From positions 1-17,658 of the IMG/VR virus record IMGVR_UViG_2671180727_000013: a DNA stretch of 17,658 bases, one strand, 5' to 3'. The notes below the pieces were generated by a model. The model ran no database searches and had not been told where the DNA came from. It saw nothing but the letters and a program-made list of their open reading frames with translations. The position numbers and the translations under genes are program-made. Each line of letters begins with the position of its first letter. Positions within the stretch are counted from its first letter, which is position 1. Source of the stretch: a virus (Duplodnaviria; Heunggongvirae; Uroviricota; Caudoviricetes). Below are positions 1,617 through 17,658 of the stretch, in pieces.

Positions 1617-1620
1617 CAGA

Positions 1621-2204: not shown

Positions 2205-2227
2205 GCTTAAACAAGTTGTTTTCTTAT
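2205..2227 (-). promoter_or_regulatory. conserved upstream cassette, copy 1 (minus strand ATAAGAAAACAACTTGTTTAAGC), 14 nt upstream of the 2190 start
   Basis: One of three near-identical 23-nt elements with palindromic core AAACAAcTTGTTT, each followed by the leader AGGAAA(A/G)(A)CAC ATG. Confidence 0.5.
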
Positions 2228-2294
2228 TGGCTTTATTGTGATGTGGCATAAAAGGGGAGCAAGCTAAACGTAAAGGTGCAAACTCTCTATTTCG

Positions 2295-2327: not shown

Positions 2328-2329
2328 CA

Positions 2330-2488
2330 TTAACACGTTGCTTTACGGACTAGCGGATAAGCGAAGTAGATCGCCAGACCAATGAGGACGCCATCAGAAA
2401 TGACAGACATCATCTTTCCCGTAAAATCCACCAACACCGCCATCACCAGAAGAGCAATGACGATCACAAGCCGGAATCTCTCAAGCAT
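2330..2488 (-). CDS. small hydrophobic protein (52 aa; MLERFRLVIVIALLVMAVLVDFTGKMMSVISDGVLIGLAIYFAYPLVRKATC), predicted membrane protein
   Basis: Not in the ORF track (below 60 aa). ATG overlaps the TerB-like stop as TAATG; two hydrophobic segments; terminator hairpin directly downstream. Confidence 0.45.
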   Translation of the reverse strand: MLERFRLVIVIALLVMAVLVDFTGKMMSVISDGVLIGLAIYFAYPLVRKATC

Positions 2489-2913
2489 TAGAGATAAGCA
2501 TCCAGTGACAACTGAAGCGCCTGGGCGATCTTTTTAAGTGCCTGCTCTTCTTGTTCACCAATGCCGTCCTGATCGGCAATATCAAGGCACAGACACAGTA
2601 CATCTACTGCATCATTAGTCCCGGCCACATCAGCCAGCTCACGTAAAGCCTGGGCATTAGCGCGGCGCGGTGAGGCTTCGTATTGAGCACGAATATTGGC
2701 GCTCATTTGGGCAATCTCACCAGCAAACGGAGAAAACGCAGGCAGAGCTGCAATTGTTTTCTCAAGAATGGAAATTTCCTTTGCGTCGCATGTGCCATCG
2801 GCATAGGAGATCATGTACGCGCCCCACACGGTGGCTTCAACCGCATCTCGGTTCTCCATTTTTTTGACCTCGATAACAGCTTTACGAGTTTTCTTTTTGA
2901 ATAAACCTAACAT
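2488..2913 (-). CDS. TerB-like protein (tellurite-resistance TerB fold)
   Basis: 141 aa; ADG...E and LCLCLDIADQDGIGEQEEQALKKIAQAL segments resemble the two TerB repeats; ATG preceded by the conserved leader AAAGGAAAGCAC. Confidence 0.5.
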   Translation of the reverse strand: MLGLFKKKTRKAVIEVKKMENRDAVEATVWGAYMISYADGTCDAKEISILEKTIAALPAFSPFAGEIAQMSANIRAQYEASPRRANAQALRELADVAGTNDAVDVLCLCLDIADQDGIGEQEEQALKKIAQALQLSLDAYL

Positions 2914-2933
2914 GTGCTTTCCTTTTGTTATTT

Positions 2934-2956
2934 GTTAAAACAAGTTGTTTTCTAGT
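2934..2956 (-). promoter_or_regulatory. conserved upstream cassette, copy 2 (minus strand ACTAGAAAACAACTTGTTTTAAC), 20 nt upstream of the 2913 start
   Basis: Same 23-nt element as at 2205..2227 and 13155..13177; perfect 7-nt palindrome arms AAAACAA/TTGTTTT. Confidence 0.5.
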
Positions 2957-2965
2957 TACATGAAT

Positions 2966-3008
2966 TGCTTACGAAAAGACGGTCAATGCATATGCACTAA
3001 CAACCGTC
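2966..3008 (-). terminator. putative terminator-like hairpin after the 62-aa membrane protein gene
   Basis: GACGGT / ACCGTC stem enclosing the palindrome TGCATATGCA, followed on the minus strand by TTTTCG; short stem and long loop, so weak. Confidence 0.35.
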
Positions 3009-3195
3009 AGAAATAACCAAGTACCGAACCAACTGGAAAAACAAAAATCCCAACAACACGAGCCAAGGTCATACCAGCCTGAAACTGGAGATCGCCAGAG
3101 CAAACAAGTTTTATAATGTTCGATACCCAACCGGCGGCCATGAGGGCAAGAATTGCCAGCCAAATTTTTCCAAAGTGATTTGAAAACCAGTTCAT
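3007..3195 (-). CDS. small membrane protein (62 aa, two hydrophobic segments)
   Basis: ATG overlaps the upstream TGA as ATGA (translational coupling); AAGGCGG SD; hydrophobic sequence WLAILALMAAGW ... VVGIFVFPVGSVLGYF. Confidence 0.5.
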   Translation of the reverse strand: MNWFSNHFGKIWLAILALMAAGWVSNIIKLVCSGDLQFQAGMTLARVVGIFVFPVGSVLGYF

Positions 3196-3410
3196 ACAAC
3201 CGCCTTAGTCACAGCATGATCCTGAGTAACTGGATGAACTTGAGGTATCGCATCCACCGTCATCCCATCCAGAGTGACAGGACGCTCTACTGGAGTGGTG
3301 GTAATTGTCGTCGACGGAGGTGTGGTGATGGATGAACCCGGCATCAAAAGGCTCTGGCCGGCTGGAACGGCTATCGTCGCCAGTGAAACTATAATGAGAA
3401 CGTAGGCCAT
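3192..3410 (-). CDS. small secreted Thr/Pro-rich protein with N-terminal signal peptide (72 aa from the ATG at 3410)
   Basis: MAYVLIIVSLATIAVPAGQS looks like a type I signal peptide with an AxA-like site; AGAGG SD upstream; no lipobox Cys. Confidence 0.45.
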   Translation of the reverse strand: MAYVLIIVSLATIAVPAGQSLLMPGSSITTPPSTTITTTPVERPVTLDGMTVDAIPQVHPVTQDHAVTKAVV

Positions 3411-3699
3411 TGGTTTCAGCCTCTTTCTTTGAAAATTTTCCATTCGAACTGTCCTTGTTGTTTTTCTCCTTCACTAAAGGCCGTGTACTTTTCGCTTCGC
3501 GTGAAGAACCAGAGGTAACAATCGCCCCCACGTTCGCAACAACTGACGCTTGCTTATCTAAACGTTCATTCAGCAACCGAACGGCAGTCTCTAGTTCATC
3601 AAGACGTGACAGAACACGACCGCTAAATAATTCGGCCAAAATTTGACGTAGTGAACGAGGACGTTTAGTTGCAGAAGTGAAATAGGTTTGACGTGCCAT
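3205..3699 (-). CDS. hypothetical protein; N-terminal ~90 aa credible, C-terminal low-complexity part overlaps 3192..3410 in another frame and may be spurious
   Basis: ATG at 3699 with GGAG SD 5 nt upstream; 3' end uncertain. Confidence 0.4.
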   Translation of the reverse strand: MARQTYFTSATKRPRSLRQILAELFSGRVLSRLDELETAVRLLNERLDKQASVVANVGAIVTSGSSREAKSTRPLVKEKNNKDSSNGKFSKKEAETNGLRSHYSFTGDDSRSSRPEPFDAGFIHHHTSVDDNYHHSSRASCHSGWDDGGCDTSSSSSYSGSCCD

Positions 3700-3714
3700 G
3701 TGGACTCCATCCAG

Positions 3715-3750
3715 TGTCAGAAAGAGTTGCGGCTGGCGATTGCCAGCCGC
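3715..3750 (-). terminator. putative terminator-like hairpin downstream of the RNase H gene
   Basis: 9-bp GC-rich stem GCGGCTGGC/GCCAGCCGC with 4-nt loop (3729..3750), followed on the minus strand by AACTCTTTCTG. Confidence 0.4.
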
Positions 3751-3844
3751 CTTTCTCGTTCCATCCTGGAACTGTGTCTTACCGACACATTGTCATCCTG
3801 ACGCCGATAAGATACATGATTTAAAATGATAGGTAAACACTTAC

Positions 3845-4438
3845 TTACTGTTTGTTGTAAACAAAACCAATATCTTTCTTGTGAGGCATATCTGCTGCGG
3901 AAAAAGCTGCGATCTTCGCGAGTCGATCACATATTTCATTTTCACGATGCCCGGCGTGACCTTTAACCCACTTCCAGCGAACATTATGTCGACTTGCAGC
4001 CTCATCCAGACGCTTCCACAGATCAACATTCTTTACCGGTTTTTTGTCAGAAGTCACCCATCCATTGCGTTTCCACCATTTCATCCACTGTGTCATGCCG
4101 TTTTTCAGATACTGGCTATCAGAGTGCAAAATAACGTTGCATGGATATTTCAAACGCTCCAGCCCGATAAGTGCCCCCATCATCTCCATGCGGTTATTGG
4201 TGGTGCTATGAAAACCATCTGAGAACTCGCGTTCCTCACCACGATACTGGAGAACTATACCGTAACCGCCCGGGCCACCCGGATTTTTAAGGCAAGAGCC
4301 ATCACTGAAGATTTTCACGGTTTTAAGCTGGGGATTGAACTCTACGACAGGCGTTGTGGAATTGGTGCGGGGAGAATTTTTGTTTTTGGCTTTTTTGCGA
4401 GTTTTTTCTTGCGATCGGGCTGGTGTCTTCGTCGTCAT
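3845..4438 (-). CDS. rnhA: ribonuclease HI-like protein with a ~40-aa basic N-terminal extension
   Basis: [57 protein letters not shown] match E. coli RNase HI motifs. Start set at the ATG at 4438 (MTTKTP) because AGGAG lies 5 nt upstream; the track's longer ORF start has no SD. Confidence 0.85.
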
Positions 4439-4439
4439 A

Positions 4440-5021
4440 TAAACTCCTGAATCAAGCGCCGCGCCGATTTTTTCCTCGCGCGTGCGCACACGCGTGCGTG
4501 TTAATAATTATTAAAATAAACAAATTACTTCCCAGAACAGGTTTTTATAAACCTGAACTGAACGAACGAAGTGAGTGAAGTTCACCTCGAACGAAGTGAG
4601 AGGTTGTCTTTTCAGGTAATACTCTCCCAGGGAGGTGAGTATAAAAATCCCTCACCAACCTGGTCGTTTCATAACCTGAAAAGTTATGGCCTAAGTCTAC
4701 TGCCAGCTTAGACTTGGGAAGTTATGGATGACAGCACCCCAGAACCGAGATCTTCCCACACTTTATGAAGGGGAGTACTGGATTCAACCTCTCTAAACAC
4801 CCCAGACTCGACAATCATAAAGTGACCCTTGTCTCCGCTCACTTTGGTTCCCCCTTCCCCGACACCTAAACGGCACCGGTTCTACGCTGGTAGTGAGCTT
4901 TTTTAAACCTGACGCCAGTGACGCTTACCCCCACCCATCAGGTCGAGTCTCCAGTCTACGACTGGAAACTATCAGATCTTAGCACTTACAATTCACTTTA
5001 TGAATAGTTTGTACTTATCTA
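4440..5021 (-). other. ORF-poor, repeat-rich structured intergenic region (candidate ncRNA, regulatory hub or origin)
   Basis: No ORF of 60 aa or more on either strand; 12-nt direct repeat GAACGAAGTGAG at 4564..4575 and 4589..4600; several hairpins and long-range inverted repeats (details in findings). Confidence 0.4.
4477..4500. repeat. 24-nt perfectly alternating pyrimidine-purine GC-rich tract (Z-DNA-prone), with embedded palindromes
   Basis: CGCGCGTGCGCACACGCGTGCGTG read directly; includes CGCGTG-CGCA-CACGCG hairpin; followed by 14-bp AT palindrome TTAATAATTATTAA at 4501..4514. Confidence 0.6.
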
Positions 5022-5252
5022 TCATTGTGATTGATTATTTTCTCTACCATGTAGTTGAACATTCAAGGCAAACACCTCATTGATCAACTCACCTAAAAGC
5101 TGTTCAACAAGTTCGCGATGCTCGCCAAGATGCAAGCACTTAATTGCCCATTCGTACAAGTTGAAAGCCTGCTCACGATCTTTCATCATTTCACGAGCCT
5201 GGGCCAGAAAATCGCTCTCTACGAGCGCAACGACATTAGTCGGGTATGACAT
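5022..5252 (-). CDS. hypothetical small protein (76 aa from the ATG at 5252)
   Basis: Track ORF 5022..5276 trimmed to the internal ATG that has AAGGA 7 nt upstream; the first ATG lacks an SD. Confidence 0.45.
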   Translation of the reverse strand: MSYPTNVVALVESDFLAQAREMMKDREQAFNLYEWAIKCLHLGEHRELVEQLLGELINEVFALNVQLHGRENNQSQ

Positions 5253-5340
5253 GTTGGTTTCCTTAAAGTGGTTCATAAAATCGATTTTAAAGCGTCTGGG
5301 AAGGGGTTCTAGTGGATTCTGTAGTGATGTTCAGGTCTGG

Positions 5341-5416
5341 AGTCTCTGATACAAAACAGCCTGCTTCCGTATATTAATAATTAATATGTAGTTATTTATA
5401 TATACAGAAGCAGGCT
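5341..5416 (-). terminator. terminator-like long hairpin after the methyltransferase gene
   Basis: Arms 5358..5374 and 5400..5416 pair over 17 positions with one mismatch; 25-nt AT-rich loop containing ATTAATAATTAAT; minus-strand tail GTTTTGTAT. Confidence 0.35.
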
Positions 5417-5437
5417 AATTACAGACGCCAGAACAAA

Positions 5438-6031
5438 CTAAGCAGCCTTCTTTGATGGTCTTTTTTTCCTGATCACATTCGCAGGATCATACCCTCCCAG
5501 ACTTTTCATGACGTCCAAAGGGATCTTGCTTATAGAGTGCCCAGCGTCCTGACAAAATCCTCGAAAAACAACGAGCATACTGCCACCTGGGTTGATGTTT
5601 ACTTCTACCTGACCCAGATTGACGTCAGGCTCGACAAACGCTACGCGGCCACCAGACAGAATAATCGTCTCATTCGCACACTCTGTTGCACGCTCATACC
5701 ACTTTGTATCTAGGGATTGAGGAATTAGCATCACTGTTGTAACTCCGCGAGCCTGCTCACGTATAGCCGCATCAATCCAGGGGGAGATTTTGGAGTAGGG
5801 TGGATTGAGGAAGGCAATTGTACCTGGCTGTCCCCATTCAGATTTCAAAGCATCACGCTCAACGCCTATGAAATTAGGCAGCTTTGCATTGTCCTTGTTG
5901 CAGGCAACGTCAACATCAAATGTCACTCCAAGATAACGTTGAATGGCAGAAAACAGCCAGTCAGGTGTTCTCCAGAGGTCACGAAGAGAGTTGTCGCGCT
6001 TTCGCTGTTTGATTTTTTCGGCTGCAATCAT
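5438..6031 (-). CDS. phage Dam-family DNA N6-adenine methyltransferase
   Basis: N-terminal WRTPDWLF...FDVDVAC and catalytic NPPYS (motif IV) in the order typical of the phage Dam family (PF05869-like); 197 aa; no adjacent restriction-endonuclease gene seen. Confidence 0.75.
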   Translation of the reverse strand: MIAAEKIKQRKRDNSLRDLWRTPDWLFSAIQRYLGVTFDVDVACNKDNAKLPNFIGVERDALKSEWGQPGTIAFLNPPYSKISPWIDAAIREQARGVTTVMLIPQSLDTKWYERATECANETIILSGGRVAFVEPDVNLGQVEVNINPGGSMLVVFRGFCQDAGHSISKIPLDVMKSLGGYDPANVIRKKRPSKKAA

Positions 6032-6090
6032 CTTCTTTCTCGATAGGTAAGTAAATACCTATTTTTGCATTTGATTTTATGTCTGGCAAT

Positions 6091-6139
6091 CAAATAAAAC
6101 GCGCCAGAAATGCAAACGAGAAGCTCTCTGGCGCGTTTT
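6091..6139 (-). terminator. intrinsic terminator after the acidic-protein gene
   Basis: Stem AAAACGCGCCAGA / TCTGGCGCGTTTT (6097..6139), flanked by A/T runs so it has a U-tail in both orientations; minus-strand tail GTTTTATTTG. Confidence 0.6.
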
Positions 6140-6143
6140 TGTG

Positions 6144-6174
6144 GTGCTGGGTATGTGATTGGCTTACCCAGCAC
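6144..6174. other. second tandem hairpin (10-bp perfect stem GTGCTGGGTA/TACCCAGCAC, 11-nt loop)
   Basis: Read directly; no U-tract, function unknown. Confidence 0.4.
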
Positions 6175-6214
6175 TATAAAGCTCTCTATGGGCTTTATTT
6201 TCAGTAGGGGAACG

Positions 6215-7024
6215 TCATCCAATAGTGTACTCCGCGACAAACTTCTTAACGATCGGTGATTCTTCGTTCAATGTTAGATTTCCACCGCCTCTAACGGCAA
6301 TTCCTGTCGCTGGAAATACAGCCATCATTTGCCCAGCCTGAGTTGACGCAGTGTTAAGCGGATACGGTTTTTCTGGATTGCTCATTAAAGCAATCTTAAT
6401 ACTATTACTTGTAGCCTTCTTTTCTGTGAGAAGGTGTCTCATGGAAATTACCGTGTAAACACTAATATCTGGACCTCCGCTAAACCAATTAAGAAGGTTT
6501 AATATCTTATCCTTTGCTTTGACAGGCGCGTTATCGTAAGCGTCTAAGAAAATATCTTTTTCTAAGCCCGCTTTATTGAAAAACGAATCATCTTTATCAC
6601 TTAAAGTAAAACGAGGACCTCTTGCAGTACGAGCTTTTTTATTTGTATTGCTATCATTTGACTGTTGAACTTTTAATTCATCATTAACCTCAACACACTC
6701 TTCAACCTCAATAAATCCCAATTGTTCTGGCTCGTTTTCGGCAGCTTCAACACTTTCAGCGTTAATTACGTTTATAGGCTCATGCGCTAACTCCAACTCA
6801 TTTAAAGCAGAGCTGAAATCACCTGCTTTTTCTTCATTGAACAGTTCTTCGGCAACATCATCAGAACTCATGGCTACGCCAGCATCTAGGCCGAGCAGCA
6901 GATCGTCAATATCATCAGTATTTTCAACCTGTGCAGCTTTTTTTACTGGTTCATCAAGTGATTGCAACATGGCTGTCAGCTCGTCCAGATCATCATTTGT
7001 CATTACATTTTCAACCGAACTCAT
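6215..7024 (-). CDS. hypothetical protein with strongly acidic N-terminal half (Asp/Glu-rich)
   Basis: 269 aa; AGGAG SD 8 nt upstream of the ATG; N-terminal ~120 aa dominated by D/E; no catalytic motif recognised. Confidence 0.55.
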   Translation of the reverse strand: MSSVENVMTNDDLDELTAMLQSLDEPVKKAAQVENTDDIDDLLLGLDAGVAMSSDDVAEELFNEEKAGDFSSALNELELAHEPINVINAESVEAAENEPEQLGFIEVEECVEVNDELKVQQSNDSNTNKKARTARGPRFTLSDKDDSFFNKAGLEKDIFLDAYDNAPVKAKDKILNLLNWFSGGPDISVYTVISMRHLLTEKKATSNSIKIALMSNPEKPYPLNTASTQAGQMMAVFPATGIAVRGGGNLTLNEESPIVKKFVAEYTIG

Positions 7025-7133
7025 GTAAGTCTCCTTCTGTTTGGTTACATTTGCGTTTCGATGGCTACATTTTGACTAAACCTATCAGGCGGAAAAGTAT
7101 TAAATACAGGCAGGAAATGATTGAAAGGCGACT

Positions 7134-7178
7134 GTTCTTTAAAAGAAAGCCTACTTTAAACTTTTTAAAGTAGGCTTT
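7134..7178 (-). terminator. intrinsic terminator immediately after the exonuclease gene
   Basis: ~15-bp stem (7146..7160 with 7164..7178) and 3-nt loop; T-runs on both sides (minus tail TCTTTTAAAG, plus tail TTTTGTTTT). Confidence 0.6.
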
Positions 7179-7182
7179 TGTT

Positions 7183-7740
7183 TTACACAATTTCAGAGGG
7201 TAATTTAAAAAATCCGTACTTATTACGTGCCTTAAAGAAGCATTGCATCATTAAGTTTGTGTCATATAAGGCACTATGTGCTTTGGCATGATCGTATATA
7301 AAGCCAAGAGAGAAGGCCAACTCTTCAAGGCGGGGACGTTTACCGTCTTCTGTGGCCCACAATCCCGATAACATAGTATCTATAACAGGAACTTCTGGCA
7401 GTCTTACTCCATACCCTGAAAACTCGTGTCGAATAAATGGTATATCAAATGCTTCGCCGTTATGAGCAACCCACACACTACATGCCCCCATATAAGCGCC
7501 AATTTCGCTGGCATGATTTGACAACAAAGGTTCAGCTGCGAGCTGTTCCAATGAAATGCCATGAACGGCTTGAGCTTTCGGATCTATGTTTCTGCGAGGG
7601 TTAAAACGCATCTCCAGACTATCAATATGTCTCTGTGTCTCCAGTTCATAGCGGGTAATTGCGATTTCAATAATTTTATGACCAGCAAGGAAATCCAGTC
7701 CCGTAGACTCGATATCGATGCCTGCAACAATCGTTGTCAT
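7183..7740 (-). CDS. DnaQ-like DEDDh 3'-5' exonuclease
   Basis: Exo I GIDIESTGL, Exo II HNGEAFDIPF, Exo III HSALYDT; AAGGAG SD; 185 aa. Confidence 0.8.
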   Translation of the reverse strand: MTTIVAGIDIESTGLDFLAGHKIIEIAITRYELETQRHIDSLEMRFNPRRNIDPKAQAVHGISLEQLAAEPLLSNHASEIGAYMGACSVWVAHNGEAFDIPFIRHEFSGYGVRLPEVPVIDTMLSGLWATEDGKRPRLEELAFSLGFIYDHAKAHSALYDTNLMMQCFFKARNKYGFFKLPSEIV

Positions 7741-7749
7741 CAGAACTCC

Positions 7750-8169
7750 TTACAACTTCTTAGCGCCCTTAAGTAGTGCGCTACGTACAAATTGAGCCGC
7801 TTTTTTCAAAGTTTCTTCACTGGTTTCACAGACAATCGGATCTTTCCACTTACCTGACACAGTGTTGAGAATATTGATTTGGTTGCTATCCAGACAAACA
7901 GAGATATAAAGCACCGTGCCACCAGCCAGCATCAAATGCATAGGAAACAGAGGCTTTTTACTGCCTTCACTGAACTGAGACATGGCGATGTTAATGGCTT
8001 CACCCACTTGTGTACCAACAAGCCCCTGCGCAGTTTCGAATATGGCACGAATAGCCAGACGAGCCTCTCGATCGCTCATAAGCGACCGGGAATGTTCGTC
8101 CGCTACACGAATCAAAGCCTCTGTTGTTTTCCGATCCAGTTCATCTTCAAGCAACATTTCACTAAACAT
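7750..8169 (-). CDS. hypothetical protein (139 aa)
   Basis: ATG with AAGGA SD 7 nt upstream; its stop overlaps the RBS of the exonuclease gene; no family recognised. Confidence 0.5.
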   Translation of the reverse strand: MFSEMLLEDELDRKTTEALIRVADEHSRSLMSDREARLAIRAIFETAQGLVGTQVGEAINIAMSQFSEGSKKPLFPMHLMLAGGTVLYISVCLDSNQINILNTVSGKWKDPIVCETSEETLKKAAQFVRSALLKGAKKL

Positions 8170-8230
8170 TTTTTATCCTTAACCCATTTTGAGAGTTTTA
8201 TTGTCGCAATGTCGAAGAGGCGAACAATTT

Positions 8231-8875
8231 CTAATGAACGGTCACTCGGCCACAGAACCGGTTTTCTATCTTTTCTACAGCGTTATCTAGCATTCTCATC
8301 ACTGATCTGGCTCTTGCTTCAACCGTGCGATATCGGTTGGAAACGACGAAGGTTTGCAGATCTCCCCTTTGCGGATGCAGGTGAATTTTTGTCAGTTCCC
8401 CGCACATCAACGCATCAATACGAGCGACATACAGACGGTCTAATGATGCTCGTTGTGACCGCAAGTAATCTCGCTCTGAGAGAGCGACCCCCGGGCGTAG
8501 GCCAGCAATGGCGTTAAAGTTTGAAATAGCAGTTTTGTGGCAAAACTTTTCGATATCGAGGGCTAACTCAATACACCGATCTTCATTTGTATGGCCGACC
8601 AAATCCAACGTGTAGGCCATAACATCAGCAGGTGTGCGATCGATAACAAAGCCTTCAACACCACGCGTAAGTAGCTCTATATGCTTTGCTATTTCCATTT
8701 GAATCTGAAGCCGCTCATATAGAGGCATAGAATCACCTACTCGAACACCGAGGCGGCTCATCAAACTTCCGACACCAGCATCCACGTAAGGGATTCCGTA
8801 ATGTTTGTCGATATATTTAGCCAGGGTTGTTTTCCCACTGCCCTGAGCACCAGTGATCCCAATCCGGTAATCCAT
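8231..8875 (-). CDS. P-loop nucleotide/nucleoside kinase-like protein
   Basis: Walker A GITGAQGSGKTT near the N-terminus (dephospho-CoA kinase / uridine kinase style); start overlaps the DHFR stop as TAATG; substrate not assignable. Confidence 0.5.
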   Translation of the reverse strand: MDYRIGITGAQGSGKTTLAKYIDKHYGIPYVDAGVGSLMSRLGVRVGDSMPLYERLQIQMEIAKHIELLTRGVEGFVIDRTPADVMAYTLDLVGHTNEDRCIELALDIEKFCHKTAISNFNAIAGLRPGVALSERDYLRSQRASLDRLYVARIDALMCGELTKIHLHPQRGDLQTFVVSNRYRTVEARARSVMRMLDNAVEKIENRFCGRVTVH

Positions 8876-9351
8876 TACGACCTTCTGTATACGATCTGCG
8901 AAAAGCCAGGCTCTTCCTCGCTGGCTCGTTGGGTATAAGCTGTTTCAACAGGCACAAAGCCTAAATTACGCATCATGCTTGCCGGGAAGAATGCATCGGC
9001 GTTTGGCACATCAACGCCGATGTGGGAGAGCCAAATCTCTTCAACATGCGGCATGAATAGCGAGTAAATTTGTTCCCCGCCAATCACCCACACAGGCTCT
9101 GGTAATCGCAACACATCATCCACACCAGCAGGGTAGAATCCATTTGGTACAAAGCCATGAGAGCGCGTCAAAACGAGGTTATGACGCTCTGGAAGAGGGC
9201 GTTTGAGACTTTCCATCGTTTTACGCCCCATAACGACAGTGGCGTTTTTGGTGAGTCTCTTAAATAGCTTCAGATCGGTAGAACAACGCCAGGGGAGTTC
9301 ATTCGCTATGCCGATCTCATAGTTACGGCCAACAGCAGCGATCATCTTCAT
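8875..9351 (-). CDS. folA: dihydrofolate reductase
   Basis: MKMIAAVGRNYEIGIANELPW...VVMGRKTMESL...RPLPERHNLVLTR...VWVIGGEQIY aligns with E. coli FolA motifs; 158 aa; ATGA overlap with upstream gene. Confidence 0.85.
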   Translation of the reverse strand: MKMIAAVGRNYEIGIANELPWRCSTDLKLFKRLTKNATVVMGRKTMESLKRPLPERHNLVLTRSHGFVPNGFYPAGVDDVLRLPEPVWVIGGEQIYSLFMPHVEEIWLSHIGVDVPNADAFFPASMMRNLGFVPVETAYTQRASEEEPGFSQIVYRRS

Positions 9352-9761
9352 TTGCTCACCTCATAGATGACCGGTCGATGGTGAGAGTCGGCTAAAGCGG
9401 CACGGAGTCGAGGATCGTGCACCAGCGCAGCGATAAGCAGATCGCCTTTATGCTCCGCTAATGTGCGCTTAATATGCTTCTCATAACTGGTGCCATTCGG
9501 TACGAGATGAAGCCAGTCATAATCAACGCCAAAATCTTTCAGCCATCGTTTAGTTGGCGCTTCAAGAGTTTCAGAGCGGCTACTGATAAGCACCACTTCA
9601 GCCCCTGAGCGAGCAAAACCACGCAACATACGGCTGGTGGGGAAAATGAGTTCATCACCGGCAATGAGCTGGCCTGCATCCGCGTCAGATACTGATTTAC
9701 GATGGCTGGCATTTGCCAGCACACCTTCAATTTCGCATAAGACATACATACCTCTTGCCAT
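9348..9761 (-). CDS. hypothetical protein, possibly HAD-like fold with Glu in place of the motif I Asp residues
   Basis: Start set at the ATG at 9761 (MARGMYVLCEIEGVL), 1 nt after the thymidylate synthase stop; hhhExEGvL then VVLISSRSE then K...GD pattern is reminiscent of HAD motifs I-IV. Weak. Confidence 0.3.
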   Translation of the reverse strand: MARGMYVLCEIEGVLANASHRKSVSDADAGQLIAGDELIFPTSRMLRGFARSGAEVVLISSRSETLEAPTKRWLKDFGVDYDWLHLVPNGTSYEKHIKRTLAEHKGDLLIAALVHDPRLRAALADSHHRPVIYEVSK

Positions 9762-9762
9762 A

Positions 9763-10866
9763 TCACACCGCCACTGGAACCTTGATCCACGATAGAGGGT
9801 CATAGCCAAGAATTAAAACCTCGTCCCATTTGAAATCATCCAACTCTGACCATTCATGAGGGAAAATAACGACCGGATCTGAATGCTCTGGAGCCTGTCG
9901 TTTCATTAGCTCACACACACCTTCCATGTGGTTGTTGTACAAATGCACGTCAAAGCCAAAATGCACAAATGCACCGGCCATGTGACCCGTAATCTTCGCG
10001 AGAAAATGAGTGAGAATGCCATAGCCAGCAATATTGAATGGCATACCAACAAAAGTGTCTACGCTACGCTGTACGAGGCAGGAGTTGAGGATGCGTTTGG
10101 GGATTCCAAGTTCATCCAGTTCAGCTTCAGTAACACTGCCGTCCATCTCCAGATCGTATAGCATCTTGGTGTAGATAGACTCGTAACCGAGGCGACTGTG
10201 TTGAAGACCAATGTCAGTTGCCATCGTTAAACGGGTTTCAAAATCCAGCTCACGACTCCACAAAGAGAAGACAAAGTGGCAAGGTGGCAGTTTCATATCC
10301 TCAAGCTCGCCTACGTTCCATGCGTTAAGCATGATGCGACGATCGGTAGGGTTCGTGCGCAGTGTATCGACAATACGCTGTAGCTGATCGATTTCACGGG
10401 ACAGCACTACGCGATCTTCACTGATACCCAGGTATCCCTCGACTTTGTACCCGCGTTCACGGAAAGTAGCGATCTTGCTCAGATATTCACTATGGCTCAC
10501 GATGCGGGTATCTTCCCATCGACGCCACTGCTTACCGTAAACCGGCCCCAAATCGCCATTCTCATCGGCCCATGCATCCCAAATCTTAACGCCGTTATCC
10601 TTGAGAAATTGGATGTTGCCCGTGCCTTTCAGATACCACTCAAGTTCGACAAGCAGTGGCTTAAGATTTACCGCCTTTCCAGAAATAAGCGGCACAGTCC
10701 CACCAGTAAGCATGTAGTAAGAGGGAACGTAGCAGGTGCTTAAAGTACCAGTGCCTGTGCGATCATCAGCCTGCACGCCGCTTTTAAGCACCGTCTCAAT
10801 AACTTTTGCATACGATGCGTTTGTTACCTGACCGTTCGTATGCTCACGATTCAAAAGGAGTGACAC
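9763..10866 (-). CDS. thyA: thymidylate synthase (ThyA-type) carrying two large insertions
   Basis: DRTGTGTLS, IWDAWADENGDLGPVYGKQWRRW, DRRIMLNAWN, LPPCH, QRSVDTFVGMPFNIAGY (Asn retained, so dUMP-specific), HLYNNHM. Start ambiguous: GTG at 10866 has GAGG 5 nt upstream; the track's GTG at 10893 has no SD. Confidence 0.85.
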   Translation of the reverse strand: MSLLLNREHTNGQVTNASYAKVIETVLKSGVQADDRTGTGTLSTCYVPSYYMLTGGTVPLISGKAVNLKPLLVELEWYLKGTGNIQFLKDNGVKIWDAWADENGDLGPVYGKQWRRWEDTRIVSHSEYLSKIATFRERGYKVEGYLGISEDRVVLSREIDQLQRIVDTLRTNPTDRRIMLNAWNVGELEDMKLPPCHFVFSLWSRELDFETRLTMATDIGLQHSRLGYESIYTKMLYDLEMDGSVTEAELDELGIPKRILNSCLVQRSVDTFVGMPFNIAGYGILTHFLAKITGHMAGAFVHFGFDVHLYNNHMEGVCELMKRQAPEHSDPVVIFPHEWSELDDFKWDEVLILGYDPLSWIKVPVAV

Positions 10867-10940
10867 AAAAACCTCACAAAGATAAGTAACCACTTATTCA
10901 TTGCGTGAGTTTACATTTATTGAGAGAACAAGACCAGACA

Positions 10941-10969
10941 GATAAAAAAATGGTGGCCATAGGCCACCA
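10941..10969 (-). terminator. intrinsic terminator after the 289-aa gene
   Basis: 8-bp stem TGGTGGCC/GGCCACCA with 3-nt loop, followed on the minus strand by TTTTTTTATC. Confidence 0.7.
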
Positions 10970-11037
10970 AAAACGAATAGTTGTTTCAGAAATTTAACGC
11001 GCCAACGCAATATACACAGATAGATAACTACCTACAA

Positions 11038-11907
11038 TTATTTTTTGATCATTCCGTACATTGCTGAGGCTTTAGCTTGCTCAACAAAGGAGGATAAATC
11101 GACATCACTATAGGTTGGAGACTTCAGAATCTTTCCATCGGAAATTCGAAAACCGATCATCTTATCGGTGCCATCAGCATGGCGGAATCCCAGGTCTGAA
11201 GAGTCGTATTTGCAGTTGGCCACAGCCTGGCGACGTTCCTCAACATCAGCAGGCCATAATTTTGTCATGTTAGACCGATGAATTTCGCCAACCAGCTCGA
11301 CTACATTGATACCGAGGAAATCAGCCAGTCGATAGGTCATCATGCACGCCACATAGATTTTGTTCATGACACGGCGCAGTTCCTGAATCAGCTCAGAATC
11401 CTTAACAGTCTTGTTCTCAAGTTTATCTGCCAGCTCTTCGAGCATACATGACGCCTCACGAGCTTCCTGAAATGGCATTGCCATATCATCGAAAACAGTG
11501 TTACCGGGCACAAAAATTGTCTGCATAAAGCGATCAATGCTCTGTTCCTGCGTGTAATAGGTCATGCCGGTAGAAATACCACCTTTGATGGCGACCATCG
11601 TACCAACACCAACGTATAAAAAGTCGGCCATTGCATCCAGCAGTTGCTCAATATCCCCATTCATTGCGGCTGGAATACCTTCCACTACAGCTTCTTCATG
11701 AATCAGGCTTGCACGGAGACGAAGCAGCTCTGGTGTCGGCATAACGCGTCTCGGATGCTGGAAGAGTTCATGAAACTGATCGACCATCTTGTAAATACTT
11801 TCAGTAGCTACACCATGACCTTCATGCAACTCATATGGTTCTGGCTTAAATCCAATGAGTCGATCGGTGGCAAGTTTCAGGTGGTCAGTCAGTTTGGTAA
11901 AGTTCAT
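11038..11907 (-). CDS. putative all-alpha NTP pyrophosphohydrolase (MazG / dimeric dUTPase-like), tentative
   Basis: 289 aa; two EE-x-x-E ... D-x-x-x-D/E acidic helix patterns (LIHEEAVVEG...DIEQLLDAMADFLYV; EAREASCMLEELADKLE). Assignment by motif impression only. Confidence 0.35.
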   Translation of the reverse strand: MNFTKLTDHLKLATDRLIGFKPEPYELHEGHGVATESIYKMVDQFHELFQHPRRVMPTPELLRLRASLIHEEAVVEGIPAAMNGDIEQLLDAMADFLYVGVGTMVAIKGGISTGMTYYTQEQSIDRFMQTIFVPGNTVFDDMAMPFQEAREASCMLEELADKLENKTVKDSELIQELRRVMNKIYVACMMTYRLADFLGINVVELVGEIHRSNMTKLWPADVEERRQAVANCKYDSSDLGFRHADGTDKMIGFRISDGKILKSPTYSDVDLSSFVEQAKASAMYGMIKK

Positions 11908-11942
11908 GCTAGTTTTGTTCCTTCTTAATTCTTGTGATCCAT

Positions 11943-11967
11943 TGTGGCCCAGCGTTGCCAGGCCACA
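11943..11967 (-). other. stem-loop in the nrdB to downstream-gene spacer (7-bp stem TGTGGCC/GGCCACA, 11-nt loop)
   Basis: Read directly; no U-tract, so probably not a terminator. Confidence 0.3.
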
Positions 11968-11984
11968 TAATGCTTTGTATCGGT

Positions 11985-13127
11985 TTACAGGTCAGCAAAC
12001 TGGCTTAGAGAAGCCTTATCCACGGTAGAATCGATCTGACCTACCAGATATGTGCTTTGCTCTGCCTCTTGTGGTGCAATTTGCAGTGTGTCGGTTAACA
12101 ACCACTTGTTCATCCAGACCAGCGGATCGGTGGTAACCTCTGGAAATAAAGCCTTCAGGCCAAGACGATTCATAGCCAGATTGGTGCGGTATTTTACATA
12201 GGTTTTGAGAATATCCGCGTTTAAACCAATCATCGAACCGTCTTTGAAGAGATAGTCTGCCCAGTTCATTTCTTGTTCGGCGACTGATTTCATGGTGTCG
12301 TAAATGACGTTTTCTTCATCAGCAGCAATCTCTTTCCACAATAAACCTTCGCGACCGGTACGCATGAAGCGGATCATGCGTTCAGTTCCTTCGCAATGCA
12401 GAGCTTCATCACGGGCAATAAAGCGCATAATTTTGGTGTTACCCTCAAGCAACTTCCGTTCGCCAAAGGCAAACGTACATGCAAAACTTACATAGAAACG
12501 GATCGCCTCAAGCGCATTAATGGACACCAACGTGCGGAAAAGCTGACGGTGCAAAGGGTATGGCTCCCAGCCATATTCATTTACGTACAGACGTTCAAAC
12601 TCCTTCTCACCTAACGACTGGCGCTCGCAGGTCATCCCATAAAGCCTGTCATATTCAGCAGAGATACTGATCGCTCGGTTGATGATTTCTTCATCCGTAA
12701 CAATACCGTCAAAAACAATGCTCGGATCGTCCACCATGCCACGAATAATGTGGGTGTAGCTGCGGCTATGGATAGTCTCAGAGAAAGACCACGTTTCAAC
12801 CCACGTTTCCAGTTCAGGAATAGAGATAAGCGGCAGCAGCGTTGCATTTGGACTACGTCCCTGAACTGAATCGAGTAACGTTTGATAACGGAGATTGCTC
12901 AGAAAAATGTGACGTTCGTGGTCCCGCAGCTTCGTGTTGAAGTCGATACGATCGCTCGAAATATCAACTTCTTCCGGCCGCCAGAAGAAAGACAATTGAC
13001 GTTCAATCAACTTTTCAAAATCACGGTATTTTTGCTGATCGTAACGTGCCACGTTGACAGATTGTCCGAGGAACATAGGCTCTTTGGTTGCATCATTAGC
13101 ACCCAAACGGAACGTTGAATATGACAT
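11985..13127 (-). CDS. nrdB: ribonucleotide reductase class Ia small (beta) subunit
   Basis: 380 aa; long stretches near-identical to E. coli NrdB as I recall it ([90 protein letters not shown]). Uninterrupted, no intron. Confidence 0.95.
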
Positions 13128-13154
13128 GTGTTTTTCCTTTTTCTTTTTTGGTGC

Positions 13155-13177
13155 GTTTAAACAAGTTGTTATCTTAT
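13155..13177 (-). promoter_or_regulatory. conserved upstream cassette, copy 3 (minus strand ATAAGATAACAACTTGTTTAAAC), 27 nt upstream of the nrdB start, plus a partial extra TTGTTTAAAC copy at 13180..13189
   Basis: Third copy of the 23-nt element; lies between the nrdA terminator and the nrdB RBS, followed by the leader AAGGAAAAACAC ATG. Confidence 0.5.
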
Positions 13178-13195
13178 GTGTTTAAACAAGGCTTA

Positions 13196-13228
13196 CAAAT
13201 CAAAGAGAAGGTGGGGATATCCCCCACC
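13196..13228 (-). terminator. intrinsic terminator immediately after nrdA
   Basis: GC-rich hairpin GGTGGGG-ATATC-CCCACC (13210..13228) followed on the minus strand by TTCTCTTTGATTTG. Confidence 0.6.
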
Positions 13229-13233
13229 ATATG

Positions 13234-15549
13234 TCAGATTTTGCAGGCTCCGTCGCACTCATCTTCTGGCTCGACGGCTACAGCTTGCGTCAGTGGATTC
13301 TGCGGTTCGTCGTCATCACGCTTTCCTGCCCCATCTCTGGTGTTGTGGTAGTAAAGCGTTTTAACTCCCATCTTGTAGGCGAGAAGCAAATCTGACAGTA
13401 GCGTCATCATTGGGACTTTATCGCCTTCAAAGCGAGAAGGGTCATAGTTGGTATTGGCTGAAATAGCCTGGTCAAAGAACTTCTGGATGATCGCCACCTT
13501 TGTCAGATAGCCGCGGTTGTCCGGCATATCCCACAGGTATTCATACTGTTCCTTCAGTTTTTCAAACTCAGGCACGACCATCTTAACGATGCCGTCCTTA
13601 GAAGATTTCACTGACACCGGGCCACGAGGCGGTTCGATGCCGTTGGTGGAATTAGTGATCTGGCTGGAAGTCTCGCATGGCATTTGTGCCGTCAGTGTGG
13701 AGTTGCGAAGGCCGTATTTTGCAATACGTTCACGCAGTTCTTCCCACGGCATCTTTAACTCAAAGTTGGTTTCGCCACTTTCGTCTAATGAAGAACGGTA
13801 ATGGTCGATCGGCAACTGACCAATTGCGTACTTGGTCTGCTCAAACCAGTCACACTCACCTTTTGCTTCAGCAAGTCGGCAGCTGGCATCAAGAAGGTAA
13901 TACTGGATAGCTTCGAACGTTTCATGCACCAGTTTATTGCCAGCGGTATCAGAATAACGAACGCCATTCTTTGCCAGGTAATAAGCAAAGTTGGTTACAC
14001 CAATTCCCAAGCTACGACGAGCTTTGGCAGGCACTTCGGCTGCCTCCATCGGATAGTCTTGATAATCCAGTAACGAATCCAGTGCAGCAACGGCATAGAA
14101 CGCCACCTCTTTAAGAGACTCCAGTGAACGGATGGCTCCGAGGTTAAAAGCGGATAAAGTGCATAGCGCGATCTCACCGTTCGGGTCGTCGGTAAATGCC
14201 AGTGGACGAGTGGGTAGAGTGATCTCCATGCACAGGTTTGACTGGCGAACAGGTGCAAGAGCAGGAATGAAAGCGCCATGCTCGTTAATATGATCGACGT
14301 TCGCAATATAAATTCGGCCCGTGGACGCTCGTTCCTGCATCAGAGATGAGAACAGCTCAATGGCAGGTACTGACTTCTTGCGAATTGAATCATCGGCTTC
14401 GTATTTATGGTACAGCTTTTCAAACAGCTCCTGGTCTGTGAAGAAGGCTTCGTACATATCAGGCACATCATGCGGGCTGAACAGAGTGATGTTCTCGCTT
14501 CTGACGAGTCGACGGTACATTAGACGGTTACTCATGACGCCGTAATCAAGATGGCGAACGCGGTTTTCATCAATACCACGGTTATTTTTCACCACCAGCA
14601 GACTTTCAACTTCAAGATGCCAGATCGGGTAAAACGCTGTTGCTGCGCCACCACGAACACCACCTTGCGAACAAGATTTAACAGCCGTCTGGAAATGCTT
14701 CAGGAATGGAATAACTCCGGTATGGGTGGCTTCACCATTGCGGATCTCGCTGCCCAGCGCACGGATACGGCCAAAACCAATACCAATTCCAGCACGACGT
14801 GAAACGTAGTCGATAATTGCGGCTGAAGCTGCACTAATCCCTTTCAGACTATCGCCAGACTCAATCAGCACACAACTGGAGAACTGACGGGTTGGAGTAC
14901 GGACGCCGGCCATGATTGGTGTGGGCAGAGACAGTTTGAACGTACTTGTAACGTCATAGAAACCTTTGACCATCTCCATACGTGTTTTGCCAGCGCAGTC
15001 GTCTTCCCAATTCTGGAACAGACACATGCCTACCAGCATATAGATATGTTGCGGCCCCTCATGAATCTCACCAGTAACACGGTTTTGAACGAGGTATTTG
15101 CTTTGCAATTGCACCGTAGCCGCATAGCCAAAAAGATCGTCACGTTTAGGCTTAATGTAATTGCCGAGTTCTTCGATCTCTTCAAATGAATAATGTGTCA
15201 GCAAATCCTTGTCATAAACGCCCTTGTTAACGTTCTTGACAATGTGTTGGTAGAAGTTCGGATAGTCGTAACGACCGAAGGCATCTTTGCGGATTTTAAA
15301 AATGTTCAGGCGGGCAGCCACCTGCGAGTAATTTGGTGCATCTGGTGAGATCAAATCAGCGGCAGATTTAACCAAAGCCTCATGCAACTGGCTGGTGGTA
15401 ATCCCATCAAAAATGCTGGCCGCAGCTCCCATTGCTACAGCGGATGCGCTTACGCCACGAATGCCTTCTACGCCATACATTACGACGCGGTTGTATTTTT
15501 CTTCGGATAACGGCTCTGTTTGGCCGTTACGTTTTACGATGCTTATCAT
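13234..15549 (-). CDS. nrdA: ribonucleotide reductase class Ia large (alpha) subunit
   Basis: 771 aa, collinear with E. coli NrdA from the ATP-cone region (VKRNGQTEP) to the C-terminal CxxxxGACKI tail; many near-identical blocks (QNRVTGEI, PTPIMAGVRTPTRQFSSCVLIE, SCSQGGVRGGAAT, NLCMEI, ALCTLSAFNLG). Confidence 0.95.
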   Translation of the reverse strand: MISIVKRNGQTEPLSEEKYNRVVMYGVEGIRGVSASAVAMGAAASIFDGITTSQLHEALVKSAADLISPDAPNYSQVAARLNIFKIRKDAFGRYDYPNFYQHIVKNVNKGVYDKDLLTHYSFEEIEELGNYIKPKRDDLFGYAATVQLQSKYLVQNRVTGEIHEGPQHIYMLVGMCLFQNWEDDCAGKTRMEMVKGFYDVTSTFKLSLPTPIMAGVRTPTRQFSSCVLIESGDSLKGISAASAAIIDYVSRRAGIGIGFGRIRALGSEIRNGEATHTGVIPFLKHFQTAVKSCSQGGVRGGAATAFYPIWHLEVESLLVVKNNRGIDENRVRHLDYGVMSNRLMYRRLVRSENITLFSPHDVPDMYEAFFTDQELFEKLYHKYEADDSIRKKSVPAIELFSSLMQERASTGRIYIANVDHINEHGAFIPALAPVRQSNLCMEITLPTRPLAFTDDPNGEIALCTLSAFNLGAIRSLESLKEVAFYAVAALDSLLDYQDYPMEAAEVPAKARRSLGIGVTNFAYYLAKNGVRYSDTAGNKLVHETFEAIQYYLLDASCRLAEAKGECDWFEQTKYAIGQLPIDHYRSSLDESGETNFELKMPWEELRERIAKYGLRNSTLTAQMPCETSSQITNSTNGIEPPRGPVSVKSSKDGIVKMVVPEFEKLKEQYEYLWDMPDNRGYLTKVAIIQKFFDQAISANTNYDPSRFEGDKVPMMTLLSDLLLAYKMGVKTLYYHNTRDGAGKRDDDEPQNPLTQAVAVEPEDECDGACKI

Positions 15550-15552
15550 GTA

Positions 15553-15588
15553 TCACCAAATAAAGAGGGCCACTATATTTAGTGGCCC
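15553..15588 (-). terminator. intrinsic terminator between the RuvC-like gene and nrdA
   Basis: 9-bp stem GGGCCACTA/TAGTGGCCC with 4-nt loop (15567..15588), followed on the minus strand by TCTTTATTTGG. Confidence 0.6.
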
Positions 15589-15613
15589 ATGTTAATAGAT
15601 AAGCACTTACCTA

Positions 15614-16192
15614 TCAATGAGATCTAATGAGAGACTTGAGAACATCGCGCACCTGGCGAAACTGATCTGTTTGCATACCGGTATGGATGGCAGCCACCGC
15701 ATCAGCCAAATGTTCGTTTTTGTTCACGAGAACATCCTGTCCAGATTGCTTACGACGCAGCCACGGTGCTTTAGGGTGTTTTTTCGTAGCCCACTGGATA
15801 ATCTCTTCTTTCGATGTAGTAAGTTTATTGCCAACAAAATGCTTGATTTCGTTTGGAGTAACCTGGATCAATGGCTTATCTACGCACGCAAGTACACCGA
15901 TGCAAATACCGTAAGACGTCTGCGAACGAGAGTTTTGGCTCCCAACCGGTAGCTCACAAAAAACCATATTTGCCTTATCAATGATTGGCTTCGCAACACG
16001 CCATATTTCACTGGCACGGCGCAGATCGTCACTGTTCACACGAACGGTCTTTTTGTTACTCCCCGCTTTAGTCTCAACAAGAGTAAGGCCGTGAATCTCA
16101 AGTTCGTCCGTTTCAAGGTCTAAAGTGCCCACAGCAAGCCCAAAGTTGCTCATAGAGGGATCAACACCAACTACGCTGATTTTTTTACTCAT
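15614..16192 (-). CDS. RuvC-like Holliday-junction resolvase (RNase H-fold nuclease)
   Basis: N-terminal ISVVGVDPSMSNFGLAV (RuvC/YqgF-type first strand with catalytic Asp), CELPVG (Glu), C-terminal HLADAVAAIH; GGAGA SD directly after the upstream stop. Confidence 0.55.
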   Translation of the reverse strand: MSKKISVVGVDPSMSNFGLAVGTLDLETDELEIHGLTLVETKAGSNKKTVRVNSDDLRRASEIWRVAKPIIDKANMVFCELPVGSQNSRSQTSYGICIGVLACVDKPLIQVTPNEIKHFVGNKLTTSKEEIIQWATKKHPKAPWLRRKQSGQDVLVNKNEHLADAVAAIHTGMQTDQFRQVRDVLKSLIRSH

Positions 16193-16201
16193 ATAGTCTC
16201 C

Positions 16202-16934
16202 TTACCATGTTCCCCATATAGGGTTTTCCAATAATCTCGCCTCCAACGAATTGGCTACTATTGCCGTTTGCAACGTTGGTTGGGGATAGTTTGCAAAGTC
16301 TGAATACTCATTTTCCTGCGTGACACGTTTATCTACGGCATGTTTAACGCCACTTGCTATGAAATGACGCATGATGCCCAACAGCCTCCGACTGTCTGCA
16401 CTATCGTTTGCTAAAACATGAGGGAGCTGAAGTTCGATTTCTACCATTTCTCCATACTTACCAACAAACTGTAGTTTGTCCGCACTGTACTTTTTATCCC
16501 TCCTTTGGATAAGGAAACCAGTAAAAGCATCACCTGGCGATGCCAAACTATCCACCCGCTTATTGGCAAGTCGAATAAGGTTCGTGAAAGCCATACAGAG
16601 ATGCGCATCCATTGCCCCAAAGAACCCTTCGCTATCAATGTTAAGATCTTCAGTTTCATGGGTTGCGATAAACCCAGGCCCGACGTTGGGGAGATATCCC
16701 CCCTCAACAAAAGGATTAATCAGGATCGGCGCAATACATCCAGGTGGTAGTGATTTCAAACTTTGCATCAATGGCGTCTCGGATATTAGACCAAGCAACG
16801 CGGCGAATTGTACTCCGTCAATATTGTTGCTGCCCCACAGAATACGTGGAGCCGCACCATTGGAAGTATGCCCATTGATCAGTTTTATCGACTGCATCAC
16901 TGCAAATACCTGCAAAAACTGCGAGCGGCTTAAT

Positions 16935-16945
<11 letters not shown>
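16202..16945 (-). CDS. hypothetical protein (247 aa), translationally coupled between the ATPase lobe and the RuvC-like gene
   Basis: ATG at 16945 lies 11 nt inside the upstream ORF; no motif of a known nuclease or phosphoesterase family recognised. Confidence 0.5.

Positions 16946-17658
<713 letters not shown>

Follow-up and report, generated by a model that had tools for sequence, protein, structure and literature searches.

In a 17,658-nucleotide stretch of tailed-phage DNA (Caudoviricetes; IMG/VR record IMGVR_UViG_2671180727_000013, positions 1 to 17,658; hereafter, the window), the genes for the two ribonucleotide reductase subunits, nrdA (15549..13234) and nrdB (13127..11985), lie next to each other on the minus strand and are separated by a spacer of 106 nt. 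We interpret this spacer as a compact terminator-promoter-operator module with an auxiliary half-site, best read as a terminator followed by a repressor-controlled nrdB promoter, and we give this reading a probability of about 0.6. The arrangement adds a new case to a type of gene control well known from phages and plasmids and calls for no new mechanism. Its operator-like site belongs to a set of dispersed palindromes, AAACAA-N-TTGTTT, found throughout the genomes of the element and its relatives.

The element and its relatives

The window, whose genes are all on the minus strand, shares about 99% identity with Escherichia phage Cyrano (GenBank accession number OV696614) and with three more E. 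coli phage records. Cyrano is plasmid pLF82 of the adherent-invasive E. coli strain LF82, a ciprofloxacin-inducible phage-plasmid of the SSU5/pHCM2 type; such phage-plasmids are widespread and very common in clinical Enterobacteriaceae. The nrd region matches 738 plasmids in PLSDB, from Klebsiella, Escherichia, Enterobacter, Salmonella Typhi (pHCM2), Yersinia pestis (pMT), and others, and the Klebsiella plasmid STEFF14 represents a distant relative (nrdAB DNA identity of about 70%). To compare the region upstream of nrdB, we aligned spacers from SSU5, pHCM2, Y. pestis pMT, Citrobacter, two Klebsiella lineages, and Cronobacter and took a further 50 distinct nrdA-nrdB spacer variants from 80 IMG/VR contigs.

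Candidate termination and promoter signals between nrdA and nrdB

Read along the minus strand, the spacer begins after the nrdA stop codon (TGA, 13236..13234) and contains, 6 nt past that codon, a GC-rich hairpin (GGTGGGG-GATAT-CCCCACC, 13228..13210) with a 7-bp stem, a 5-nt loop, and a folding energy of -14.5 kcal/mol, which the terminator scan, folding, and conservation mark as a candidate intrinsic terminator. Its T-rich tail (TTCTCTTTGATTT, 13209..13197) overlaps in its last bases with a candidate -35 element, TTGTAA (13198..13193), and a candidate -10 element, TAAGAT (13176..13171), follows 16 bp later. Within the stretch separating these two hexamers is a first copy of TTGTTTAAAC (13189..13180), which constitutes a perfect right half-site (TTGTTT) without a left arm. 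The main 13-bp palindrome, TAACAA-C-TTGTTT (13171..13159, centered on 13165), is operator-like and can be extended by AGA/TCT to the 19-bp form AGATAACAACTTGTTTAAA (13174..13156); its right arm plus AAAC makes up the second copy of TTGTTTAAAC (13164..13155). An A-rich stretch with the Shine-Dalgarno sequence AAGGA (13139..13135) leads to the nrdB start codon (ATG, 13127..13125), which is situated inside a stereotyped ribosome-binding site, AAAGGAAAAACACATG. Thus, the GC-rich hairpin with a U-tail and the two direct minus-strand repeats 25 nt apart that figured in the preliminary description of this DNA are both in place, the repeats being exact and the tail imperfect. These are the only two exact copies of TTGTTTAAAC in the window, and when one mismatch is permitted there are 8 matches versus 1.9 expected, a number reached in 1 of 200 shuffles. 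The second copy sits within AAGATAACAACTTGTTTAAAC, which resembles window sites at 2953..2938 and 2224..2209.

Every phage-plasmid lineage examined, eight diverged ones in total, has retained a GC hairpin of 7 to 8 bp past the nrdA stop codon, with energies of -14.5 to -17.4 kcal/mol (-14.7 to -17.4 kcal/mol for the equivalent hairpins of the seven other lineages). Closing pairs and loops vary by lineage (e.g., GGTGGGC-GAAA-GCCCACC and GGTGGGGC-TTAA-GCCCCACC), and hairpins were folded sequence by sequence, a cross-lineage alignment having misregistered the stems and yielded an uninformative consensus structure. A T-rich run comes after the hairpin in every lineage, relatives having TTTTCATT-type tails at the same place. 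The U tract in the window, UUCUCUUUGAUUU, has 6 U residues in its first 8 bases and is interrupted, and that of the relatives is mostly UUUUCA. A generic terminator scan returned 24 terminator-like sites in the window, compared to 16 expected.

The promoter candidate TTGTAA-16-TAAGAT agrees with the sigma-70 consensus at 8 of 12 positions, with A at position 2 and T at position 6. Its TTG column is kept in the E. coli, SSU5/pHCM2/pMT, Klebsiella, Cronobacter, and STEFF14-type lineages, and TAAGAT is present in nearly all lineages that bear the palindrome at nrdB (one E. coli variant has TAGGAT), such that the same columns in palindrome-bearing relatives read TTGAGC, TTGAAT, or TTGCAC-16-TAAGAT. 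Lineages without a palindrome at nrdB have TTGAGA-16-TATCAT (STEFF14) or TTGATT-16-TAAAAT at these columns, and because they keep the hexamers, conservation of the promoter-like positions does not depend on the operator-like site. The last T of TAAGAT is the sole departure of the nrdB site from AAGAAAAC (left arm, AAACAA) and persists in every lineage, consistent with this T being position -7 of a -10 element; the combination of TAAGAT with the site recurs at another STEFF14 promoter (position 86907). From these elements, transcription is predicted to start near 13167..13164, in which case the palindrome would span approximately -8 to +7. Searches for NrdR boxes (16-bp acaCwAtATaTwgtgt, up to 3 mismatches) returned no match in the nrdA-nrdB spacer, and the Rfam covariance models detected no family at gathering score anywhere in the window.

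A palindrome dispersed among predicted promoters

The preliminary description had viewed the sequence before nrdB as a 23-nt cassette joined to a conserved leader, a unit that broke up on comparison with whole genomes. What is repeated is a 13-bp palindrome of 6-1-6 layout, AAACAA-N-TTGTTT (19 bp with the AGA/TCT extension), and the window holds three copies, all on the minus strand: the one before nrdB, a second (AAACAACTTGTTT, 2950..2938) upstream of a TciA-like gene that starts at 2913, and a third (AAACAACTTGTTT, 2221..2209) upstream of a gene for a 189-amino-acid protein that starts at 2190. The leader, AAAGGAAAAACACATG, is an unrelated ribosome-binding site of the form AAAGGAAA(A)ACACATG found ahead of 13 Cyrano genes, with dnaE, sbcD, and the SSB gene among them. 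Because 9 of the 13 have no palindrome, we removed the leader from the cassette and regard it as a common translation start context, separate from the palindrome. Its copies in the window are at 13125-13141, 2911-2927, and 2188-2204 (minus strand).

Across the Cyrano genome, there are 27 matches to the palindrome with up to 2 mismatches, against 7.1 in shuffled sequences, and the 18 sites with no more than 1 mismatch are nearly all intergenic and upstream of plus-strand genes, in a genome of which only 13% is noncoding. The genes behind these sites are terS (two sites), parA, the replicative helicase gene, cobT, nrdB, tciA, and some ten small genes whose function is unknown. SSU5 has 20 sites (up to 1 mismatch) at orthologous places, and between orthologous sites of Cyrano and SSU5 the center base varies freely and both arms are kept. 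An unbiased count of perfect 6+6 palindromes puts AAACAA-N1-TTGTTT at the top in Cyrano, SSU5, and STEFF14 (9, 11, and 16 copies, respectively), and each of the three genomes contains some 20 sites (18 to 20 with up to 1 mismatch), almost all of them intergenic and at predicted sigma-70 promoters. When viral contigs were scanned for the extended motif, those with multiple matches were SSU5-like, and lone matches elsewhere resembled chance. The searchable literature yielded no paper containing the palindrome sequence and no study of regulatory sites in SSU5-type elements, and the set appears to be undescribed.

Two layouts account for the position of the palindrome relative to predicted promoters. 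In the more common one, an extended -10 element (TGnGATAAT, TGnTATTAT, or TGnGAAAAT) is followed by the palindrome, whose center falls at about +14 of the predicted transcript; in the other, a reversed site, AAACAA-N-TTGTTTTCT, is located 19 bp upstream of such a -10 element, with its center at about -38. In both, the side bearing the AGA/TCT extension faces the promoter core. The reversed copies, several of which directly follow a terminator hairpin, lie outside the transcript of that promoter. The twofold symmetry, the free center base, and the reversed upstream copies together indicate a double-stranded DNA site for a symmetric protein rather than an RNA element. We rejected the possibility that the palindrome is itself a promoter for a special polymerase or sigma factor, in that a good extended -10 sigma-70 element immediately precedes most sites and some sites are mirrored to its upstream side. 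STEFF14 was also considered as a changed-operator lineage in which covariation could be sought and was set aside because it uses the same palindrome elsewhere in its genome.

The annotated starts of two Cyrano genes, CYRAN_105 (95805) and CYRAN_110 (97903 in OV696614), place a promoter and a palindrome inside coding sequence; the true starts are more likely the ATG codons just downstream of the palindrome.

Spacing of additional sites

The upstream copy of TTGTTTAAAC is exactly 25 bp from the main site and has been kept in SSU5, pHCM2, and Y. pestis pMT. In Klebsiella and Cronobacter, this half-site has decayed to TCATTTTAAC and TTATTTTCAC, and a second full site is found exactly 25 bp downstream, with an intervening sequence that differs between the two; two further lineages have a left half-site at +25. 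Over all spacer variants, the perfect half-sites that fall no more than 60 nt from the main site are at -25 or +25, with only two types of exception, namely, AAACAA at -12 in some E. coli variants (by way of TTTAAACAAAT) and a lone AAACAA at +38 in one variant of the Cronobacter type. Neighboring sites are either 25 or 51 bp apart, with four cases of each, and the 25-bp step separates the two terS sites of Cyrano and SSU5 as well as one STEFF14 pair. The two 25-nt units at nrdB are identical at 19 of 25 positions (76%), and the upstream half-site may have originated by tandem duplication. Judging from the conserved 25-bp geometry, it is probably a functional auxiliary element; the idea put forward earlier, that the doubled half-site gives extra input on nrdB, gains support from the fact that 25 bp is the spacing of the extra sites in every lineage.

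The region upstream of terS, which encodes the small terminase (Cyrano locus L002, positions 1-135; SSU5 locus L013, positions 1-134), has two palindromes 25 bp apart and then, right in front of the gene, a terminator-like hairpin, AGAGCGC..GCGCTCT, with GTGTGTTTT. This promoter-proximal arrangement of sites and then terminator recalls late operons controlled by antitermination.

A second palindrome class upstream of nrdA

A different dispersed palindrome (consensus, approximately GATAAGTAnnTACTTATC) is located upstream of nrdA (15595-15615, minus strand), between TTGATA (15617..15612) and TAACAT (15594..15589). Further copies in the window are on the plus strand (3828-3852, 6042-6066, and 10881-10905), and genes preceded by this class in the window include thyX, dam, and one other. 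Cyrano, SSU5, and STEFF14 have roughly 25 to 30 copies each, including some before portal, tail, fiber, and holin genes, and TAAGTA-N2-TACTTA is the second most common perfect palindrome in all three. With nrdA behind the second class and nrdB behind the first, the two subunit genes are preceded by different motif classes, a hint that their control sites differ.

The nrdA leader itself (15567-15588, minus strand) has promoter-like hexamers and then a hairpin, GGGCCACTAAATATAGTGGCCC plus TCTTTATTT, immediately ahead of the start codon. The palindrome in this leader is conserved even in STEFF14, and its loop is inverted relative to that of Cyrano (CTAAATATAG here and CTATATTTAG there). The hairpin (15570-15585) is the only match in the window that resembles an NrdR box, at 3 mismatches, which is not significant (a match arose in 37 of 200 shuffles).

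The thyX open reading frame called mechanically (9763-10893, minus strand) begins at a GTG that lies nine codons ahead of the Cyrano-annotated start, and because the extra codons overlap the second-class palindrome, the shorter annotated version is more likely to be correct.

Expression in strain LF82

To examine transcript levels, we used table S1 of the LF82 prophage study (PMC9928086), which gives log2(5+FPKM) per Cyrano gene for ten samples (FPKM, fragments per kilobase per million mapped reads). Values range from 2.86 to 4.51 for nrdA and from 3.47 to 5.91 for nrdB, with nrdB above nrdA in all ten samples by about 2- to 7-fold in FPKM; mazG, the next gene after nrdB, is higher still, and nrdA is below the ruvC-like gene upstream of it. 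Because nrdB consistently exceeds the upstream nrdA, read-through alone is insufficient to account for its level, which supports a new start between the two genes, although differences in RNA stability may also produce such an excess. In the uninduced state, genes behind the palindrome have 5.7 to 25 normalized counts, compared to a background median of 9.8, and parA has 50.

Separate transcription of nrdA and nrdB, as proposed in the preliminary description, is therefore supported, short of proof, by the nrdB excess and by the conservation of the hairpin and promoter. The comparison with related elements that had been suggested as a check points the same way: all three features, namely, hairpin, T run, and promoter positions, persist in every related lineage.

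Candidate binding proteins

Two proteins, CYRAN_29 and CYRAN_123, are candidates for binding the palindrome. CYRAN_29 (OV696614, 29975-30334), annotated as a RelE/ParE toxin and encoded directly after a small ParA, shows expression in the plasmid state. Both its disordered, arginine-rich tail and the KSRTMS(L/I)EDE segment that comes next are invariant in Cyrano, SSU5, and STEFF14, against an overall identity with STEFF14 of 52%, and the parA promoter carries one palindrome in each of these genomes. By eye only, its strand-helix-helix-like pattern, likewise invariant across lineages, makes it look more like a ribbon-helix-helix centromere-binding protein of the ParG/omega type; searches of Pfam and PDB gave no match. 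CYRAN_123, an 88-amino-acid protein whose gene lies just ahead of the terS sites, shares 78% identity with its STEFF14 counterpart, has poor expression in lysogeny, and has a subthreshold match to the LexA DNA-binding domain (E value of 0.07).

CYRAN_114 (OV696614, 100780-101301) and SSU5_121 are full-length members of the FljA family (Pfam Flag1_repress; E value of 1e-80). The Cyrano protein shares only 36% identity with its STEFF14 counterpart and reaches log2 values of 7 to 8 in most LF82 conditions. FljA, a post-transcriptional repressor of phase-1 flagellin, is reported to block translation of fliC mRNA (PMC2652032), and CYRAN_114 may silence the flagellin of the host.

Several other proteins were discarded as candidates. 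CYRAN_45 and CYRAN_43 are expressed in lysogeny, and their block has no tblastn match in SSU5, which has the palindrome; CYRAN_117, highly expressed and ribbon-helix-helix-like by eye, has no Pfam match and no homologue in STEFF14 despite the presence of the palindrome there. No CI-like protein conserved across lineages was found, and no C1 homologue is annotated.

Proposed mechanism and alternatives

Under the reading that we favor, transcripts covering nrdA would mostly end at the conserved hairpin, which resembles an intrinsic terminator, and nrdB would then be made from its own weak sigma-70 promoter, TTGTAA-16-TAAGAT, as the conservation of its positions suggests. The -10 and start region of this predicted promoter are covered by the palindrome, shown here to be one of roughly 20 such sites distributed over the genome at promoters. 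An element-encoded dimeric DNA-binding protein would most likely bind these palindromes and repress their promoters during plasmid life, and the upstream TTGTTTAAAC would probably strengthen binding through cooperation between neighboring proteins, as its 25-bp geometry implies.

Several points weigh against this reading. The interrupted U tract may permit substantial read-through, and the nrdB promoter candidate is under the threshold of the generic scan (9/12), which did not call it. The 25-bp register could derive in part from tandem duplication of a 25-bp unit. The LF82 values are low, are gene-level, and represent only the uninduced plasmid (lysogenic) state; the low counts behind the palindrome fit repression only weakly, because most phage genes are silent in lysogeny, and parA has a palindrome yet is moderately expressed. 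Furthermore, no candidate palindrome binder produced a significant family or structure match.

Some of these points would be accommodated if nrdA and nrdB formed a single transcription unit, in which the hairpin is a partial terminator or an RNA-stabilizing or -processing structure that tunes the subunit ratio and the upstream TTGTTTAAAC is a functionless remnant of duplication. The weakness of the U tract TTCTCTTT, the low specificity of one terminator-scan match when sites are only half again as numerous as expected (24 versus 16), the 76% identity of the 25-nt units, and the 8/12 score of the promoter candidate are all in keeping with such a unit. We nevertheless consider it unlikely, since attenuation alone is unable to raise nrdB above nrdA in ten of ten samples, even a lineage without the cassette has kept the -35 and -10 positions, and auxiliary sites remain at exactly 25 bp though the intervening sequence has diverged between Klebsiella and Cronobacter. 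Very improbable, in our view, is action of the cassette in the mRNA, either as a leader bound by a translational repressor (e.g., an FljA-like protein) or through a hairpin between two copies of GUUUAAAC. Conservation of both arms of a perfect palindrome around a free center is the usual signature of a double-stranded DNA site occupied by a dimer, and as RNA the palindrome could form only a very weak hairpin; mirror-image copies exist upstream of -10 elements and outside the transcript, several of them after terminators. Although most copies are in predicted 5' leaders, 15 to 40 nt before start codons, and RNA folding does pair the two copies of GUUUAAAC, that pairing is lost in Klebsiella and Cronobacter, and although Cyrano and SSU5 encode a full-length FljA-family protein, its counterpart in STEFF14 has only 36% identity and the motif is unchanged.

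A further alternative overlaps with the terminator and repressed-promoter reading and differs from it mainly in which protein binds and when: the palindrome could be the site of a partition-linked or late-acting factor (a KorB/omega-like regulator, a centromere-like function, an activator, or the loading of an antiterminator) that couples nrdB to the plasmid state or the late phase. The site at the parA promoter of all three genomes, the position of CYRAN_29 after parA together with its invariant arginine-rich tail and strand and its expression in the plasmid state, the two sites and hairpin that precede terS, and a 6-1-6 layout with positions near -38 and +14 that recall the RK2 KorB/KorA operators would all suit a factor of this kind. 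Against this stand the lack of a family or structure match for CYRAN_29 and the silence of the partition-type ParB homologue in lysogeny; moreover, the strong extended -10 promoters upstream of most sites need repression, not activation, to be silent, and we regard the alternative as doubtful. Equally doubtful is a more specific proposal, in which CYRAN_29 binds the AAACAA-N-TTGTTT set as an omega/KorB-like silencer of early and replication genes that is tied to partition, and nrdA and nrdB are deliberately wired to different regulators. If it were true, two dispersed palindrome codes would govern SSU5-type phage-plasmids, and the small subunit could be made without the large one.

Comparison with known systems

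Phage P1 is a plasmid prophage whose C1 repressor recognizes one operator, an asymmetric 17-mer, repeated at many promoters. The SSU5-type set is similar in having about 15 to 20 copies of one short operator-like site at scattered early, replication, and accessory promoters, including that of the replicative helicase, and in that the sites overlap or follow the promoter; it differs in the symmetry of its 6-1-6 site and in the 25- and 51-bp geometry of its pairs. As with the partition-linked global regulators KorA/KorB of RK2 and omega of pSM19035, a 13-bp 6-1-6 palindrome is spread around the replicon, upstream of the -35 element or over the -10 element and start, and one copy is at the promoter of the partition operon, but its sequence is unrelated to that of RK2 (TTTAGCSGCTAAA). 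Lambda OR1 and OR2 are about 24 bp apart, center to center, and are bound cooperatively; the spacing of approximately 25 bp between neighboring sites over a promoter is likewise compatible with dimer-dimer cooperation, whereas the sites here are 13 bp (17 bp in lambda) and at nrdB the auxiliary element consists of a half-site alone.

In phage T4, nrdA and nrdB are expressed from separate MotA-dependent middle promoters, and nrdB has an intron. The window provides another case in which the subunits of a phage class Ia reductase are not encoded in a simple two-gene operon, although here, unlike in T4, the genes are adjacent and split by the 106-nt module. The chromosomal nrdAB of E. coli, which is controlled by NrdR, DnaA, and Fis upstream of nrdA, has the same gene order and class, with protein identity of about 60% (loci L089-L093); the host-type spacers (loci L090, L091, and L093), unlike that of the window, have repetitive extragenic palindromic (REP)-type repeats and no cassette.

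The result for the reductase genes is modest, in that an internal terminator and promoter between subunit genes are already known from other phages. As a genome-wide operator-like site, the palindrome supplies a map of likely promoters and repressor targets along with a testable 25/51-bp geometry and a second palindrome class ahead of nrdA and the late genes; taken together, these account for the local layout at nrdB, and the set offers a route toward the switch that keeps SSU5-type elements as plasmids.

Additional observations

CYRAN_98 (OV696614, approximately 89227-89700), annotated as a LexA-like peptidase of the S24 family, is UmuD-like and has no DNA-binding domain; a LexA-box-like sequence, CTGTATGTGTATACAG, is present upstream of this gene, which is strongly expressed in LF82. 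Finally, direct repeats of CTCACTTCGTTCG are found close together at approximately 4540-4600 of the window (minus strand), within a long noncoding stretch upstream of an RNase H-like gene.

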